This document shows, piece by piece, positions 22,843 through 30,980 of a DNA stretch of 34,078 bases (positions are counted from its first letter, which is position 1; each line of letters opens with the position of its first letter). The stretch is from positions 1 through 34,078 of IMG/VR virus record IMGVR_UViG_3300005805_000258. The stretch is one strand, 5' to 3'. This stretch comes from a virus. Lineage: Duplodnaviria > Caudoviricetes. The position numbers were made by a program, and so were the translations under genes. Below the pieces are notes generated by a model. That model did not search any database. It saw nothing but the letters and a program-made list of their open reading frames with translations, and was not told the DNA's origin.

Positions 22843-24405
22843 ATGACCTGCGGGTGCTCTAAGCAAGAAAAAACAAATCTGTGGACACCAATACCAGATT
22901 TTACGAAGCCAACTGAAATATTACCTGGTGAAAACATAGACTGTTACGCTAAGAGGGCAAATGACGATATTAAAGATTCACCTGCTGAACAGCTGGCTGG
23001 GCGTATCAGTAACACAGTAATCGTTTCTGATCTAAACTTACAGGTAAATGAACAGTTTAAGCTTACTCCAAATCCACCTACTCCTGCAGCAAGCTGGAGT
23101 ATTACGGTAGATGGTGCATCAGGTGTCCCATCTGGAATGGGACTCGCATTCAACACCTCTACTGGAGCACTGAGTGGAACTGTTAATGAATCATATGCTG
23201 ATAAAAATTACAAAATAAAAATAACAGCACTGAGCTCAGCAGGAGCTGAGATAGACTCTAGAGAATTTAATTTCTATCCTAAGAAAGCTAGCTCAGAAGA
23301 AACTATTAAATTCGTGTGGCCACTTCAACCTAAAGGTGTTGTTACCAGCAAATTTGGACCAAGAAAGAGGCCAGCCGCTGGTGCAAGTAGTGATCATGGC
23401 GGTATAGACATTGCTCTACCTGGGGGTGCGCTAGGAGAGATTGTTGCTGCAGCAGATGGAACAGTGATAAGATGTGGGCCTGGCCGAGGTTGGGGCAATG
23501 TCATCATGATAGAGCACCGTGATGCACAGGATAGACTGGTTGCAACAACGGTTTATGGCCACTGGAGCTCAGCGTATGTTACCGTGGGGCAGAAGGTTGC
23601 TGCTGGACAGAGGATAGCAAAAGAAGGAAATGTTGGTGTTGGCACCGGCGCTCACCTTCACTTTGAACTACACAGGGGAAAGTTTAAGAATCCTATTGAT
23701 CCTCTTGGCTATCTAAATGGTGAAATTTCAGTAGCTGTGAATAACGATCCTCAGACCGGAGCTCCTACTGGTGGTCAGGAAACTCAGAACAGATCAAATA
23801 CTGGAATGACAGCCAGAGAGACTGAAACCATTCAGAGTACGGCATGCCCAAGTGTGCTGCCCAATCAACAGCCTCCGCTGACATCCACCGATCCATCATC
23901 ACCGCCTATTCCTTCTACGCCTGGCAATGCAGATGTTAAATCAGAGATTCAGCGCGCACTAGACGAATCAGATCTAGCACAGGATGATAAAGATTTGCTC
24001 ATGTTCATGGCCTACATAGAGAGTGGATTTAAGGCCGATGCGAAGAATCCTACCTCTAGTGCCCGGGGTCTATTTCAGATGTTAGACAAGACTGCAGTAA
24101 GATACTATGATAAAATAGGAATCCCTGCAACAGTTGAGAATAGGAATAATCCTTACTATGCCACCAAGGCACAGATAGAGTTCTACAAATCAGAGCAGCT
24201 GCGATACTGGAATGAATTCAATTCATCAGGAAAAACAAAGATAGCTGGAAAAACTCTTAAACCTGAAGTTTCATCTAGGTACGCTAATTACAATAAAGGC
24301 GAATTCGTTTACGGGCTCATACATCACGACGGAGTTGGAAGCGCCGTGGCTGGCAAGGATCTCCAGGGCGTTGACTACTACAGAAAACGGGTTAGGCAGG
24401 CATAG
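22843..24405 (+). CDS. Multidomain peptidoglycan hydrolase: Ig-like + M23 peptidase + lytic transglycosylase-like
   Basis: P.G..FNTSTGALSGT (Ig-like); HGGID, YGH and HLHFE (M23 zinc motifs); IESGF...A.N..SSARGLFQ (SLT motif with catalytic Glu). Confidence 0.88.
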   Translation: MTCGCSKQEKTNLWTPIPDFTKPTEILPGENIDCYAKRANDDIKDSPAEQLAGRISNTVIVSDLNLQVNEQFKLTPNPPTPAASWSITVDGASGVPSGMGLAFNTSTGALSGTVNESYADKNYKIKITALSSAGAEIDSREFNFYPKKASSEETIKFVWPLQPKGVVTSKFGPRKRPAAGASSDHGGIDIALPGGALGEIVAAADGTVIRCGPGRGWGNVIMIEHRDAQDRLVATTVYGHWSSAYVTVGQKVAAGQRIAKEGNVGVGTGAHLHFELHRGKFKNPIDPLGYLNGEISVAVNNDPQTGAPTGGQETQNRSNTGMTARETETIQSTACPSVLPNQQPPLTSTDPSSPPIPSTPGNADVKSEIQRALDESDLAQDDKDLLMFMAYIESGFKADAKNPTSSARGLFQMLDKTAVRYYDKIGIPATVENRNNPYYATKAQIEFYKSEQLRYWNEFNSSGKTKIAGKTLKPEVSSRYANYNKGEFVYGLIHHDGVGSAVAGKDLQGVDYYRKRVRQA

Positions 24406-24469
24406 TGCGCCTAATCATATAAAAGCACACAGCGCCAAGAATTTGAAGAACAGCGAGAGTGCTGACACC

Positions 24470-24477
24470 TATAAATA
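24470..24477 (+). promoter_or_regulatory. T4-type late promoter TATAAATA
   Basis: Exact consensus about 30 nt upstream of the MotA-like gene. Confidence 0.78.
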
Positions 24478-24507
24478 AATTCATCATATATTAAAAAGGT
24501 GGCGCGC

Positions 24508-24984
24508 ATGTTAGTTCTTTTGCGGTGGTGGTTTATATTCTGTCTGTGCTGCTTTGGTTTTGGAATAGCGTGCATGCTGGGATTCTTTGGCTACATGCTG
24601 AGAGTTGATCACTCTTATATGGGTATAGTAACTCTTACCGTATTCGCAGTCACCAGCATATGGATAGGATTCCTTACATACCGGGCTCATCGAGGTGATA
24701 GTACATTTGCGGATCACCTTCCTACTTGTTGGTTTATTAGTGAAGGAATGATGGGACTAGGTATGGTGGGAACCCTAGTGGGCTTCTTGGTGCTACTCAG
24801 TACCGCCCTAGGTTCTCCTATTAACACTGCAGATACTGCAGCAATGGCCGCCCTCATATCCAAGATGGGAGTAGGATTTGCCACTGCTGCCCTTGCAACT
24901 CTAGTTGGCCTTATCTGCTCTCTGCTAACCAAGCTACAGTTAGTGAATCTTGAATACTTGAAGCCTGATAATGAAAAATTATAA
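24508..24984 (+). CDS. MotA/TolQ/ExbB proton-channel family protein
   Basis: Four hydrophobic segments. GLGMVGTLVGF and GFATAALATLVGL match the two conserved channel helices. Start is ATG 24508 or GTG 24499. Confidence 0.82.
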   Translation: MLVLLRWWFIFCLCCFGFGIACMLGFFGYMLRVDHSYMGIVTLTVFAVTSIWIGFLTYRAHRGDSTFADHLPTCWFISEGMMGLGMVGTLVGFLVLLSTALGSPINTADTAAMAALISKMGVGFATAALATLVGLICSLLTKLQLVNLEYLKPDNEKL

Positions 24985-25609
24985 ACTAGACCTTGCATTT
25001 CTAGACATGTTATTCAACATGACTCTAGCATTCTCATTTCTCTTTCTCATGTCTTTCCTGCTCATCCGGCCACCTGCTGCTAAAGAAGATGCAGCGTTAA
25101 AACCCAAGGCAGAATTTATTATTTCACTCTCCTGGCCAGATGAGTCTCTGGATGACCAAGACCTGTGGGTTAAGCTTCCAAATGGAAAAATAATATCTTA
25201 TGGCAGTAAGGATCTGGGTTACGCCATCTTAGACAGAGATGATCGTGGAACCGTTAGCAATTTTTATATGGATAAGAATGGTAAGATGCAGCTCATCAAG
25301 CAGCGCAACGAGATTGTGACAATCCGAACTCTTATGCCTGGGAGATATGTTGTGAATGTCTATTGTTTTTCCGTTAATAGTACTTGGGCCGAATTTAAGA
25401 ATCCTCACGACCTACCCTACCCTGTTTCAGTTTCTCTAACTAAGGTTAATCCCACGCTCTCAGAGATTATAAAGGTTGAAAAACCTATGAAGAAATTAGG
25501 GGATCAGCTGACCATGTTTGCTTTCACAGTAGGTGAAGATGGGCAAATAGTCTCAGTTGAGCAAGATGTGGATGAGCCTTTTATCAGTAAATTCGCAATA
25601 CCTCAGTAA
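24971..25609 (+). CDS. MotB/ExbD/TolR-like single-pass protein with periplasmic beta domain (YfaP/DUF2135-like)
   Basis: N-terminal TM with the conserved Asp (LAFLDMLF). W.....D.DLWV..P, LDRDD.G, E and PG.Y.VNV motifs follow. Overlaps the MotA-like gene by 14 nt. Confidence 0.72.
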   Translation: MKNYKLDLAFLDMLFNMTLAFSFLFLMSFLLIRPPAAKEDAALKPKAEFIISLSWPDESLDDQDLWVKLPNGKIISYGSKDLGYAILDRDDRGTVSNFYMDKNGKMQLIKQRNEIVTIRTLMPGRYVVNVYCFSVNSTWAEFKNPHDLPYPVSVSLTKVNPTLSEIIKVEKPMKKLGDQLTMFAFTVGEDGQIVSVEQDVDEPFISKFAIPQ

Positions 25610-25613
25610 ATCT

Positions 25614-26099
25614 ATGAAAGAAATAATCTATTTGCTCTCTCCAATCATAGCCACACTGTCAGTGATTTTTTCAGTAGCTGTGTTTGTCTATCTAAAATCA
25701 AGTGCTCCTACCTTTGTGAAGGCGCTGTTAATTCCATTCTCTCTGGCACTGTGTTTGTTCATACCTATTGTTTTTTGGACATTTGTTGGCGTGGCCAAAC
25801 CTGTTCATAGTCTTCCTTATAAAATACAGGTTCTCTGTCACCATGTAACCGTTGTTGAAGGGAAGAAAGACAGAATAGAGATATGGTACGCTGATGGTAG
25901 TAGAACCAAACTTGTGTCTATACCTTATTCAAAGGGACTTGAGAGAGCACTGTCAGAAATAGCAGAGGCCAGAGAGAGTGGTGAGATGAGAGCTCTAATA
26001 TCGGGGGAGGCTGGCGGAGGGGAGGCAGGGGCACAGGGTGAAGAGAGCTCCTATAAATCTGAGATTATTCCGCCAAACCATGGTCTTCCACCTAAATAG
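25614..26099 (+). CDS. Membrane protein (2 TM + soluble domain), third gene of the MotA-like cassette
   Basis: ATG 25614 follows the upstream stop; two hydrophobic segments, then IEIW...IPYSK.L, and ends LPPK. Confidence 0.65.
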   Translation: MKEIIYLLSPIIATLSVIFSVAVFVYLKSSAPTFVKALLIPFSLALCLFIPIVFWTFVGVAKPVHSLPYKIQVLCHHVTVVEGKKDRIEIWYADGSRTKLVSIPYSKGLERALSEIAEARESGEMRALISGEAGGGEAGAQGEESSYKSEIIPPNHGLPPK

Positions 26100-26116
26100 A
26101 ACCCACAGCTAACATC

Positions 26117-26587
26117 CTACAGTGCCGAGCGGAGAATATCAACCAGAGGATACCGTGACGAAGATCTAAATCTTTTCCAGTACTGTGGATGATCTACTTT
26201 TATGAGAGGGCTAAGATTTGATTTCTTAGCCCATTTTTCTGCGGCACCACCAAGAGCTATAAACCGCTCAATATCCCAATCTTGCAGTAGGTTGCTATCT
26301 AGAGCACATCCATCATAGAGTGTACTGTTAACCCAAACTAGCCTGTTCTCAGGAATGCCGTTCAGGTGTAGCAAAGAATTTAGCCACCCAGAACAGTGCT
26401 TGGTGCTGTAGAAGGGAGTGTGATGATAGCCAATATCCTGAGGAGCTGATGGGCCAGGTCTATCTCCTATAATACAGATCTTAGGGCCAACATCTGCACA
26501 TCCTGCTAGAACTTTAAGGTAGGTCTGTTTCCTAACTTCTAGACTAGCTGCATAGGAACATTTATCAAGGCTGTGGTTATTGAGCAT
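26117..26587 (-). CDS. Uracil-DNA glycosylase superfamily protein (family 4/5-like, minimal)
   Basis: IIGDRPG (motif A-like), PF....SG.L, W.N, IALG..A and HPQY (motif B-like). Confidence 0.7.
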   Translation of the reverse strand: MLNNHSLDKCSYAASLEVRKQTYLKVLAGCADVGPKICIIGDRPGPSAPQDIGYHHTPFYSTKHCSGWLNSLLHLNGIPENRLVWVNSTLYDGCALDSNLLQDWDIERFIALGGAAEKWAKKSNLSPLIKVDHPQYWKRFRSSSRYPLVDILRSAL

Positions 26588-26610
26588 GATGGATACTTAA
26601 TAAAGCGTAA

Positions 26611-27465
26611 TTAAACAAAGTTACTCTCGCGTAGCCACTTGGTAGCTACCCATTTCTCTCCCTGCATAACCGGTACGCTGCCATGAAGAGTACGAGTACT
26701 TGCGTGAGGTCTGTCATAACTGAAGAACAGAGCATTTCCCTTGATAGGAGATACGAGCAGATTAAGATCGGGAAACGTTGTTTCTCCTCCTAAATGAGGA
26801 GTGTTAAGATACATGATTACTGTTGCCACTCGTTGACCACCGCGCTTCAAGACTGTTGCTGATCCAGCATGAGCTGGATCAAAATAATCATAATGAGGTT
26901 TATACTCTTCGCCTGGTCCATAGTGCAGTAACTGCAACCCTTCACCATTTTCTATGGGCCAGTGGGTTAGAGCCGCTATACGAGCCTCAATTCGGGCTAC
27001 TAGTTCATTCTGAGCTCTTTGAAAGAACATTCCTCTGCTTGTTCTAGCTGAGTGAATGGCATTCCCACCAGTTTCAGGAACAAATGCTTCAGATCTAGCT
27101 AGTTGTGGAGAGGCAGCCTCTATTAGACTGTCACATTCTTCAGATGATAGAAAATTTGACAAAACAACAACTCTGGGGTTGCTCATGCTTATGATGATAG
27201 GAACCTCTCTATCAGGTAGGCGCAGTGTAGCGCACCCTGGTTGAACTATTGGTTCTGGCAATACTACAGATGATGAAGCGCTGCTTGAACGCAGATTTTG
27301 GACAGCTGCGGGATTGAGTGTTGTCTCTAGAGCACGTTGCGCTACCTCTGCAGGCCAGCCATTCTTGATCATGGATTCGAGTAGATGTTGTACGGAAAAA
27401 TTAGCTGACTGTGCTACTATCCATGTACGTAATTCTGGAGTAATTTCTGGCAATAACATATACAT
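26611..27465 (-). CDS. Prolyl 4-hydroxylase-like 2OG-Fe(II) oxygenase
   Basis: FLS.EECD.LI, RTS, EGLQLLHY..G.EYKPHYDYF, QRVATVIMYLN, GGETTFP, TLHG..PV..GEKWVATKW. The H-x-D...H triad and the 2OG-binding Lys are intact. Confidence 0.93.
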   Translation of the reverse strand: MYMLLPEITPELRTWIVAQSANFSVQHLLESMIKNGWPAEVAQRALETTLNPAAVQNLRSSSASSSVVLPEPIVQPGCATLRLPDREVPIIISMSNPRVVVLSNFLSSEECDSLIEAASPQLARSEAFVPETGGNAIHSARTSRGMFFQRAQNELVARIEARIAALTHWPIENGEGLQLLHYGPGEEYKPHYDYFDPAHAGSATVLKRGGQRVATVIMYLNTPHLGGETTFPDLNLLVSPIKGNALFFSYDRPHASTRTLHGSVPVMQGEKWVATKWLRESNFV

Positions 27466-27503
27466 TATTCCTATTAAATTTATCTACAATTATATTGTAA
27501 CCT

Positions 27504-28442
27504 CTAATTTAATCTGTGTACAATCTGCGCGTAGAGAGGTATTCCTATCAAGATATTAAATGGGAATGACAGACACAGAGTGAGGGTGTGATGGACTTGT
27601 GCTCCAATGGCAGACCCCGTATTCCTGATAACAAATGGAACTGTGGTGTAGCTGGCACCTCCCGCCAGTGCCATTAGAAGAATTGTATCACCATCGCTGA
27701 TTCCAGCTAGTTCACATGCTACCAGCACTAGTAGGCTGCAGCACACGGGAGCAGCTATTGCATAGCTCAAGAGCACTGAGCTCTTCCCTCTAAGAGCTGG
27801 AAAGCGTTCTGCAACTCTGAGGCCCATGTCTAGAAGTATGAATGCCAGCACCCACTTAAAAATATCAATTGTAAGTGGTTCAAGCCTGTGCACGCCAGCC
27901 CGATCTGTTACAAATCCAATCACTAGCCCCAACAGCAGTAGTAGGAATGTTTTGTCTGTGAAGGATTCACGAGCTACACCTTTAAGTCCACTAACTCGCC
28001 CGGTGCACCACAAGGATACCAGCGCTACAGAAATGATTATAGCTGGACCCTCTATCAAGGTCACTACTGTAGCTAGAGTTCCTGAAAATTCTGTTCCATT
28101 AAGGATTAGATATTGAAATGCCACCACAAGAGTCACTGGGCTAATTGATTCACAGACTGCCGAGGCTGCTGTGGTATGGGATCGTTCAAAAAATTTTCTA
28201 AACAGCATATAGCCTACAGAAGAAATAATCAGAGCAAGCAGACCAATCACGGCAATGAATACTGTCTGAGTATTAAAACTGCTGTTGCTCACAGACACGC
28301 CACATTTGACACCTAGTGCAACAAGTAGATAGATACCCAGGAATTTTGATATTTGAGCGGGTACCGAGACACTAGATTTGAATAATCCAACAAATATACC
28401 CAGTACAAAAAATAATACTGTTGGATCAAATAGAACATTCAT
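27504..28442 (-). CDS. sbtA: Sodium-dependent bicarbonate transport family permease (SbtA-like), diverged
   Basis: DP..LFF.LG, P..ISKFL..YLL.A.G.K.G, E.PAII, LLLL.GL.IG, F...LAF.LLDMG, ASY..VP and FPFNILIGIPLY; about 10 TM segments. Confidence 0.85.
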   Translation of the reverse strand: MNVLFDPTVLFFVLGIFVGLFKSSVSVPAQISKFLGIYLLVALGVKCGVSVSNSSFNTQTVFIAVIGLLALIISSVGYMLFRKFFERSHTTAASAVCESISPVTLVVAFQYLILNGTEFSGTLATVVTLIEGPAIIISVALVSLWCTGRVSGLKGVARESFTDKTFLLLLLGLVIGFVTDRAGVHRLEPLTIDIFKWVLAFILLDMGLRVAERFPALRGKSSVLLSYAIAAPVCCSLLVLVACELAGISDGDTILLMALAGGASYTTVPFVIRNTGSAIGAQVHHTLTLCLSFPFNILIGIPLYAQIVHRLN

Positions 28443-28519
28443 ACGGCCCCCACGCTTAACTTTTAAATGCGGAGTAAGATGGACTCTTAAGTGCTCTACT
28501 AGAAAGATTAACCGCTGTG

Positions 28520-29605
28520 TTAGGAGATGAATACATCATTTATCTGACGATTCACTCGAATGAAAGATGTGCACTTGCTGAGGTGCTTCAAACTTGAGGC
28601 ACCCACATATGTACAGGTGCTGCGTAGTCCACCTAGGATATCTAATACCGTGGCATCAACACTGCCCCTATATGGGACACGAACGGTTCTACCCTCACTG
28701 CTTCTATAGCTAGCAACCCCGCCGTGATGCTTGCGCATTGCGGTGTCTGAGCTCATACCATAAAATTCTACAAATTGTTTAACATCATAGACTTTTTTAG
28801 ATAGATCACCGGGGGAAACAAATTTATTTGTTTCACTTACCTCTTCTACGACTTCGCCTCCTCCTTCATCATGCCCAGCGAGCATGCCTCCCAGCATCAC
28901 AAAGTCCGCACCAGCACCAAAAGCTTTAGCAACATCACCAGGACATATACATCCACCGTCAGCAATAATATGTCCACCAAGACCGTGAGCCACATCGGCG
29001 CATTCAATAATAGCACTAAGTTGTGGGTAGCCCACACCAGTTTGAATACGAGTAGTACAAACGCTACCAGGCCCAATACCAACTTTAACAATATCTGCTC
29101 CACGTAAAATTAACTCCTGTGTCATGTCTGCGGTAACAACATTACCCGCAATTATAGTATGCTGAGGGAACGCTTTTCTAACTTCTTCAACAAAATCACC
29201 AAAATGTTCTGAATACCCATTAGCAATGTCTATGCAGATGAAATTTATTTCTGGACATGCATTTAAGATACTGCTTAAACGTACTAGATCTTTTTCACTA
29301 GTTCCAGTGCTGACAGCAAAGTTGTCAGCACTCGTATTTTCAATTACAGCGGGTAATTTCTCCGCATCGATATTTTTAACCAGGCACGTAAACATTTGAT
29401 GTTTAGCCAGTGCAGTAGCCATCTCTAGCGTTCCAACACCATCCATGTTGGATGCCATGATAGGAACACCTTTCCACTCCAAACCACTGTGTCTGAAATT
29501 ATAGGTGCGTATTAGATCAACTTCTTTTCTGCTTGACAGGGTACTTCTTTTAGGACGAATTAGGACATCTTTGAAATCAAGTTTAATATCTTCTTCAATT
29601 CGCAT
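28520..29605 (-). CDS. guaC: GMP reductase
   Basis: [79 protein letters not shown]. Confidence 0.96.
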
Positions 29606-29641
29606 GTATTGTCCTCACATGTTATTTTATATTCATATGTA

Positions 29642-29671
29642 ATAATAACACGCGTGGGTTGTGTTGTAAAC
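29642..29671 (-). promoter_or_regulatory. Early sigma70-type promoter for the guaC-sbtA-P4H-UDG run
   Basis: Minus strand reads GTTTACA, 17 nt ending in TGT, then TATTAT. This matches a T4 early-type -35 GTTTAC and an extended -10. Confidence 0.75.
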
Positions 29672-29677
29672 TGCGAT

Positions 29678-30313
29678 TTAGAAATAATCAGAGAACCACT
29701 GTTGCCATGTTCCAGGGAATTTGGATGGTTGGTAGAACCAACGGGATCCATTGGTTTCACTTATGGAGACATTCAGCTTTATTTGATAGAGGTCACCTAC
29801 CAAAAGTGGTGATATTACTGTAATAAAGTGCGGGCCAGCTGGGAAAAGAACAAGCGTACCTCTCTGTGGCATGAGGCTGAAATTATATGCAGGAAATTCT
29901 AACTTTCCACCGAAGACTTCGAAACGTGGATCGATTGGAACCTGTTGGTTGAAGTCCTTTAACCAAACAAAACCGACAAGATCAACATCCTTGTGCATTA
30001 CCCATTTTTTACGCACATATTTGGAATTTTCACAGCCAGGCGCCTCTGCAGGTTCCTTAGCATTTTCAGGATAGTACTGAAACAGTGGCTTGTGAAGACC
30101 TTTGTACGCGCACGAATAGGTTGATTCAATATTAGGAATGAGGGGTCTAAAATTCTCTATGAGAGACTGTTCCCAGAAAAGATGGTGCCTTTCAAGTTTC
30201 TTAGGATTACCATCCGCGTCACGATCTGGTTCTAGAACCTTGGTGTCCTCTATAATTTTTTCACAAGTAAGGGGTGAAATAAAATCCTGCACCACAATAA
30301 AAGGGCTTACCAT
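29678..30313 (-). CDS. 2OG-Fe(II) oxygenase-fold protein with non-canonical ligand motifs
   Basis: VQDFISP..C, FQYY, GGKLEFP and P.RGTLVLFP are present, but the HxD site reads GCEN and the distal H..V.PV..G.R reads FITVISPLLVGDL. Confidence 0.7.
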   Translation of the reverse strand: MVSPFIVVQDFISPLTCEKIIEDTKVLEPDRDADGNPKKLERHHLFWEQSLIENFRPLIPNIESTYSCAYKGLHKPLFQYYPENAKEPAEAPGCENSKYVRKKWVMHKDVDLVGFVWLKDFNQQVPIDPRFEVFGGKLEFPAYNFSLMPQRGTLVLFPAGPHFITVISPLLVGDLYQIKLNVSISETNGSRWFYQPSKFPGTWQQWFSDYF

Positions 30314-30332: not shown

Positions 30333-30980
30333 TTATCTTAGTTTAATAGAATTCTTAGTATTTATTTGGGAATTCAGTGTGTTTTCTACCAACGCTATAT
30401 CCTTGCTTATATCACTTATATCTTTAGACAGCTCCTTGTGATAGCTTCTGAACTCAGGCACCGCAGCTCTCGCAAATTCATCGATCTTATCCAGCTGAGA
30501 GGTAATCTTTGAGAGAATATCTTGAACCTGATGAAGAGTCGTTTTTAGATTAGAGGTAACTGTATCTCCTTCAGACTCCTGATGTTTGAGCTCATCTTTA
30601 ATCACATCAATATCACGGGCTAGCTGATCTGCTAGATCTTGAAGATCTCTCTTTAGCATTAAAATTTCAGTGGCGTTTGAACGCATCGCATCCAAATTAG
30701 ACATTGAGTGATGCTTCAGTTCATCTAATTTTTCCACAAGCGCGTCAAAGGCCTGCTTGTGATCTTCTTTTGTTGGTACGTCATCTAATTTTTCACTAAA
30801 TTCTTTTATATGCATATCCATACCACCGGAGAACAGCCCACCACCATTGGCAATCATCATCTTTAAAGCCAGACGCATTACAACAAATACGATCCCCATG
30901 ATCACTATAGATACGAATACGAATTCAACAGGAGAGACCGTAGAATATAGATCCTTTAATAATTTTAGGATTAAATCCAT
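30333..30980 (-). CDS. Membrane-anchored coiled-coil protein
   Basis: Hydrophobic segment at about residues 18-40, then a long heptad-rich region. Confidence 0.7.
   Translation of the reverse strand: MDLILKLLKDLYSTVSPVEFVFVSIVIMGIVFVVMRLALKMMIANGGGLFSGGMDMHIKEFSEKLDDVPTKEDHKQAFDALVEKLDELKHHSMSNLDAMRSNATEILMLKRDLQDLADQLARDIDVIKDELKHQESEGDTVTSNLKTTLHQVQDILSKITSQLDKIDEFARAAVPEFRSYHKELSKDISDISKDIALVENTLNSQINTKNSIKLR

Follow-up and report, generated by a model that had tools for sequence, protein, structure and literature searches.

In print, all of the 5:2 ion-driven motors that we found are host machines, at work in flagella, in the Ton and Tol systems, in gliding and in Zorya. Sections of two papers on this class (PMC9389320, PMC11946911) provide the model of ring subunit and axle subunit that is used below. 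For the Tol system, a section of PMC12583513 gives T145 and T178 of TolQ, together with D23 of TolR, as essential, and also describes an SHLS motif in TonB and TolA. Here, we describe a three-gene phage cassette, A-B-C, which is apparently an undescribed variant of the 5:2 class that is widespread in phages. A search of open-access paper listings found no paper on the trio, whose genes could still be named in phage annotation tables among supplements.

The cassette lies in a stretch of 34,078 nucleotides from the IMG/VR virus record IMGVR_UViG_3300005805_000258, which was analysed at full length and is referred to here as the window. The virus is a jumbo phage; its major capsid protein is gp23-like and closest to that of Ralstonia phage RsoM2USA (344 kb; 64% identity), and the 34-kb window corresponds to ~10% of the genome size in this phage group, one complete relative of which has 368 kb. 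On the plus arm, head and tail genes are followed by an i-spanin, an o-spanin lipoprotein (both assigned from weak PHROG matches) and a lysin that combines Ig-like, M23 and SLT domains (22843-24405, plus strand), and then by genes A, B and C. Gene A (24508-24984, plus strand) encodes 158 amino acids, and its ATG start agrees with the starts of its homologues. Gene B (24971-25609, plus strand; 212 amino acids) overlaps A by 14 nt, and gene C (25614-26099, plus strand; 161 amino acids) follows after a gap of 4 nt. Hydropathy gives four transmembrane (TM) segments for A, one for B and two for C, and the GC content of all three genes is the same as that of the window. The layout is therefore as given in the preliminary description, i.e. 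a promoter-like box at 24470, three tightly packed membrane genes, and a third protein with two TM segments.

The box itself, TATAAATA (24470-24477, plus strand), is located 31 nt upstream of the A start codon and matches the consensus of T4-type late promoters. Three copies of TATAAATA occur in the window, all of them intergenic, on the coding strand and upstream of genes; their number alone is at chance level (a mean of 1.74 in shuffled sequence, with three or more copies in 23 of 100 shuffles). Its ATAAATA core precedes 7 of the 34 genes of the window, with no antisense occurrence, against a mean of 1.4 in shuffled sequence and a single shuffle out of 2000 that scores as high. Either the box or the core also precedes head and tail genes, at 1405, 5368, 9277, 11596 and 18402. 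Because the copies are intergenic and in sense, and because the core is enriched upstream of genes, TATAAATA at 24470 is likely a late promoter, and the earlier proposal of late expression is thereby supported for the window. A scan for sigma-70 promoters and terminators gave nothing above chance level. Late timing is not general for the cassette, since many phage copies have replication genes as neighbours and no TATAAATA-like box. One copy with TATAAATA upstream lies on a contig of 11 kb in a cyanobacterial bin (L050) and is placed near the window copy in a tree of B proteins; the contig is possibly a phage contig inside that bin.

Judged by profile comparison, A is a relative of the MotA/TolQ/ExbB family and a homologue of PF01618. 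A profile built from 69 A sequences matches MotA (E 6e-6), TolQ (6e-5) and ZorA (1e-4) in the PDB, as well as ExbB and PomA, with MotA being the best sequence match. A shallower A profile finds no motor in the PDB, and the window protein alone has neither a Pfam nor a PHROG match. Matches to PF01618 are below threshold in 13 of 19 close A homologues, and longer bacterial ones exceed its cut-off (9/16 A proteins). Atlas features place A with viral PF01618 clusters (0.94), and an Atlas structure search with A returned no TM-score over 0.5. Two conserved threonines are present in the last two TM helices: Thr89, in a GxxGT motif, and Thr131 align with T145 and T178 of Escherichia coli TolQ, these residue numbers being counted from the profile alignment. 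A is thus a compact four-TM protein with both channel motifs, as had been claimed. Across the 69 sequences T131 is invariant and T89 is kept in at least 90%, whereas in a set of 43 loci the first channel Thr is kept in 36 A proteins and absent from seven, four of which have Lys instead. In one bacterial clade (L068, L071-L073), Lys replaces this first Thr. Trp7 and Asp34 are conserved positions specific to the family.

With TolQ and ExbB, A thus shares homology and both channel threonines; it differs in having four TM helices and almost no cytoplasmic domain. The four-TM topology is that of MotA and PomA. The cytoplasmic domain of MotA is large, whereas A has no such rotor-contact domain: its TM2-TM3 link is only ~25 residues long and the protein ends ~18 residues after TM4.

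Gene B encodes the single-pass partner with a TM Asp that is also found in TolQ-TolR-TolA and ExbB-ExbD-TonB. Its model (pLDDT 93) comprises a TM helix (residues 5-31) that contains Asp12, a 15-residue coil linker and a periplasmic beta-sandwich. Asp12 is kept in 143 of 144 homologues; in the 43-locus set, its column holds Asp in 38, and the five exceptions are one bacterial clade (L074-L078), in which an Asp stands four residues earlier and a Lys four residues later. Conservation of the channel Asp and Thr, which the preliminary description had made decisive for its reading, is therefore found among the homologues, with deviations in some bacterial clades, and together with the profile matches it supports the claim of a phage-encoded MotA/ExbB-type pair.

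As modelled, the periplasmic domain of B is YfaP-like in sequence and TerD-type in fold. Fold comparison matches it to TerD with Z-scores of 9.8 (rmsd 3.6, 131 residues aligned) and 8.9, the next match being at 5.5, and Foldseek likewise pairs the model with TerD (E 2e-4); by sequence there is no link to TerD (profile probability 1.5%). Its likeness to YfaP, which was recognized at the outset, holds in hhalign at a probability of 90% and an E of 1.4e-6, using a YfaP template that included one wrong-frame row (L083), and 7 of 144 B members match PF09906 (YfaP/DUF2135) below threshold. In contrast to YfaP and TerD themselves, the domain of B stays below the Pfam cut-offs and is fused to a motor axle helix. 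It takes the place of the ExbD/TolR domain, which is absent from the model and matched by just three of the 144 members, with an E of 0.005 at best, and no OmpA-like domain appears in the model or in the fold comparison. Unlike MotB and PomB, then, B has neither a plug helix (the linker is a coil in the model) nor an OmpA-like anchor, and there is no flagellar context. Four acidic residues (D62, D64, D90 and E114) are invariant, and the head likely binds Ca2+, by analogy with a TerD entry in the PDB whose title names a calcium-binding protein.

A third membrane gene in the operon is likewise a feature of the Tol and Ton systems, and C occupies the corresponding place. The protein consists of a TM hairpin (residues 2-57), an invariant Gly59, a small beta domain (65-150) in which three strands are followed by a helix and a further two strands, and a low-confidence tail; as the hairpin loop is basic, it is likely cytoplasmic. 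Compared with TonB and TolA, C crosses the membrane twice, with no His in either helix; both the SHLS motif and a long periplasm-spanning linker are missing, and its compact domain follows directly behind the membrane. It matches no named family. Residues 65-160 gave weak structural matches (Z 4.2-5.7) to domains that are presumably OB folds, and the modelled small domain is probably OB-like. At E <= 0.001, a fold search with C against the PDB gave no match; a wider one was filled by the TM hairpin, and in BFVD only members of its own family match. Sub-threshold matches to DUF4131 of ComEC, a DNA-binding periplasmic OB fold according to a section of PMC12455585, occur in 21 of 53 C members (best E 4e-4). 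Homology to ComEC/DUF4131 was not confirmed: hhalign of C with 26 ComEC N-termini reached a probability of 4%, and 0.3% for the soluble part, against a shuffled-column control that is rough only, and so did no better than with CcmE or NfeD, which were themselves dismissed as relatives of C for want of any hhalign signal.

All three ORFs are genuine genes, and they occur together as a single unit. For their order, on which the preliminary description had suggested a synteny survey, A-B-C proved fixed: all 44 IMG/VR loci have A ahead of B, and among the best 80 of 145 metagenome matches, 79 of which contain an A ORF, B follows A in 70/70 and C follows in 55 of the 57 loci with room for it. At 50% identity, 2003 clusters match B. 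A tblastn search with B hit 29 of 50,697 phage records, all from Rhizobium or Sinorhizobium phages, and each of five inspected records has all three genes, which their annotations call hypothetical or identify by just a number. Cultured carriers include Rhizobium phage RL2RES and Sinorhizobium phage 16-3, and in the temperate phage RHph_TM3_3_14B the cassette sits just after the annotated attL. Among 401 bacterial genomes of one phylum, 14 matched, of which one weak match lacked A or C, leaving 13/401; a C profile built from phage sequences finds C in 12 of these 13 regions. A pattern scan of genome contigs was insensitive (three loci), and the profile search found more. In a midpoint-rooted tree of 62 B proteins, the window copy groups with two others of viral or metagenomic origin, whereas the bacterial copies, of which there are 15, fall for the most part (11) into one clade among viral ones; the diversity of the cassette in this sample is mostly viral. 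One bacterial copy (L052, 7398-9124) has B and C broken up into pieces in different reading frames, either by decay or by long-read assembly error.

How might these proteins work together? By analogy with known 5:2 motors, a working ion-coupled A5B2 complex is quite probable, and we also consider it probable, if with somewhat less assurance, that C is a true subunit. The intact channel residues, together with a B and a C of the cassette's own, speak for a functional, self-contained motor and against a decoy. Modelled on MotAB and TolQR, five A would form a ring around two B helices; ions, likely protons, would pass Asp12 and the ring of Thr89 and Thr131, turning the ring against the axle. The B heads—TerD-type and likely Ca2+-bound—would be held close to the membrane by their short linker, and C would dock outside the ring via its TM hairpin, at the place where TolA and TonB dock, a position drawn from analogy only. 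The small beta domain of C could then grip a substrate, and rotation would move C against the B heads. Since the periplasmic domains of both B and C sit close to the membrane, the work would probably be done near the inner membrane and not at the outer membrane.

The weakest step of this scheme is its purpose, which may lie in helping to catch or bring in material needed late in infection. Within ~8 kb of the cassette in 63 loci, neighbouring genes comprise an SbmA/BacA-type cluster (nine), ClpP-like proteins (11) and trypsin-like proteins (seven), and Pfam confirms SbmA_BacA in six loci; these neighbour counts are inflated by kinship, as many kin phages are included. The recurrence of such importers and proteases suggests uptake of peptides or nutrients; the SbmA and ClpP-like neighbours may, on the other hand, be merely common cargo. 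None of the three gene types is found in the window. Chromosomal copies adjoin regulators, solute-binding proteins and, in one case, a TonB-dependent receptor, and Pfam named no defence family among 100 of their neighbours. Uptake as the purpose is thus a possibility that we regard as rather doubtful.

In the window, the cassette shares a variable accessory slot (24406-29677), located between the lysin gene and gene 29678-30313, with four minus-strand genes. These are a 156-aa ORF (26117-26587) without a Pfam match, which also occurs next to the lysin in one relative (L194; 46%) and whose GDRPG motif we associate with uracil-DNA glycosylase-like proteins; a 2OG-Fe(II) oxygenase (26611-27465); a full-length SbtA-family Na+-dependent bicarbonate transporter (27504-28442; Pfam Sbt_1, E 1e-66), which has no PHROG family and does not occur in this slot in close relatives; and a GMP reductase (28520-29605), whose best match in the phage collection is a Salmonella record (60%), with related phages at 44-46%. 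A search with gene 29678 gave six relatives, and all but L189 extend as far as the lysis block. In each of these five, the spanin-spanin-M23/SLT block adjoins gene 29678 with no cassette there; a match to B is absent from their records, including the complete 368-kb one, and RsoM2USA has no cassette match anywhere. The slot is only 59 bp long in L190, is occupied by different genes in L191-L194 and in RsoM2USA, and spans 5.3 kb in the window. The cassette is therefore optional accessory cargo, beside the lysis module and not part of it.

This arrangement bears directly on the proposal that the complex controls lysis, by replacing the holin or by timing depolarization. Such a role would suit the late box, the spanins and lysin next door, and one clade in which C is in frame with a lysozyme (six full loci); moreover, RsoM2USA, which has no cassette, has a holin-like ORF before its spanins. 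Against this, the five closer relatives have no multi-TM holin-like gene before their spanins and no cassette beside the block. The window indeed has no holin-like ORF next to the spanins, so that the description of the module as holin-less stands for this stretch, but the observation is uninformative; the window covers ~10% of a genome, and the cassette-less relatives look the same. Of 22 non-redundant IMG/VR loci, only one has a lysin within ~4 genes of the cassette, in a scan of the fusion ORF and 149 of the 152 called neighbours. Among 18 metagenome loci, L137 left out, the number is four, three of them kin, with 111 of the 130 neighbours scanned. Intact chromosomal copies exist outside any phage context. 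Holin replacement was accordingly rejected, the suggested part in lysis timing or depolarization did not hold up, and control of lysis now appears very improbable; that the cassette is not for lysis is, in turn, very likely. Several observations on this module stand apart. In L033-L036 and L038-L040 (e.g. L034, 2645-3553), the reading frame of C continues into that of a phage lysozyme, which retains a separate ribosome-binding site and start codon (ATG), making this either a fusion or a dual-start gene that could anchor the lysozyme on the periplasmic side. The ORF of RsoM2USA (L188, 7841-8164; RsoM2USA_422) is unannotated, encodes a hydrophobic protein of 107 amino acids directly before the spanins, is holin-like by position and has no homologue in the window or the other phage records; the lysin counterpart of this phage has a GH108 domain instead of SLT. 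A 215-aa single-TM coiled-coil protein of the window (30333-30980, minus strand), conserved in relatives and replaced in L194 by an ORF of 87 amino acids whose TM segment is C-terminal, is a possible holin candidate to which Pfam and PHROG lend no support.

Other readings place the cassette in conflict or in metal handling. Superinfection exclusion, whereby the motor or its subunits would block competing phages by disturbing the host Ton/Tol systems or by gripping incoming DNA or tail parts in the periplasm, fits accessory membrane genes in a variable slot, the presence in temperate phages such as RHph_TM3_3_14B with its copy next to attL, and the weakly OB-like C with its sub-threshold matches to the DNA-binding DUF4131. 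A jammer, however, needs no B and C of its own with intact channel residues, early timing would presumably suit it better than late, and the soluble domain of C gave no signal in the comparison with ComEC; we regard exclusion as unlikely. A more specific version, in which a phage-centred 5:2 motor uses C as a membrane-anchored OB-fold gripper, like the front end of ComEC, for proton-powered DNA catching in the periplasm—blocking superinfecting genomes or scavenging nucleic acid—and was taken over by bacteria from phages, is highly unlikely. For the TerD-type head to sense or handle Ca2+ or a similar metal, gating the ion channel or loading periplasmic metal enzymes, speak its fold, the four invariant acidic residues and one bacterial branch that adjoins sigma-54 activators and metallo-beta-lactamase-fold genes; yet sequence similarity to TerD is nil, and the acidic motifs are common to YfaP-like domains and may be structural, leaving this reading distinctly unlikely. 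Finally, A also matches ZorA and the pair shares 5:2-type channel motifs and a phage-related setting with ZorAB, as a Zorya decoy or counter-defence mimic would. ZorA nevertheless scores below MotA and TolQ, and the cassette lacks both the long cytoplasmic tail and the peptidoglycan-binding OmpA-like domain that a section of PMC11946911 ascribes to ZorAB. It also has no ZorC, ZorD or ZorE, no effector-like neighbours in the window by Pfam or PHROG, a dedicated third gene and copies in bacterial chromosomes, and it is phage-carried rather than anti-phage. The decoy that had been suggested is hence extremely improbable.

Our preferred reading remains that of a likely late, self-contained 5:2 ion-driven motor that would sit in the host inner membrane and do mechanical work in the periplasm, most plausibly in uptake and not in lysis, and we hold it, taken as a whole, tentatively. 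While the Ton, Tol, flagellar and Zorya motors belong to the host, this cassette is mostly phage-borne, and it offers two new types of partner, B and C, for 5:2 motors. What the window contributes is the TerD-type fold that B adopts in its model, the hint of an OB-like domain in C and the status of the cassette as optional cargo, not a missing holin. Since cultured Rhizobium and Sinorhizobium phages carry it, the cassette is directly testable, and A, which is little more than four helices, would make a natural minimal model for how 5:2 motors turn.
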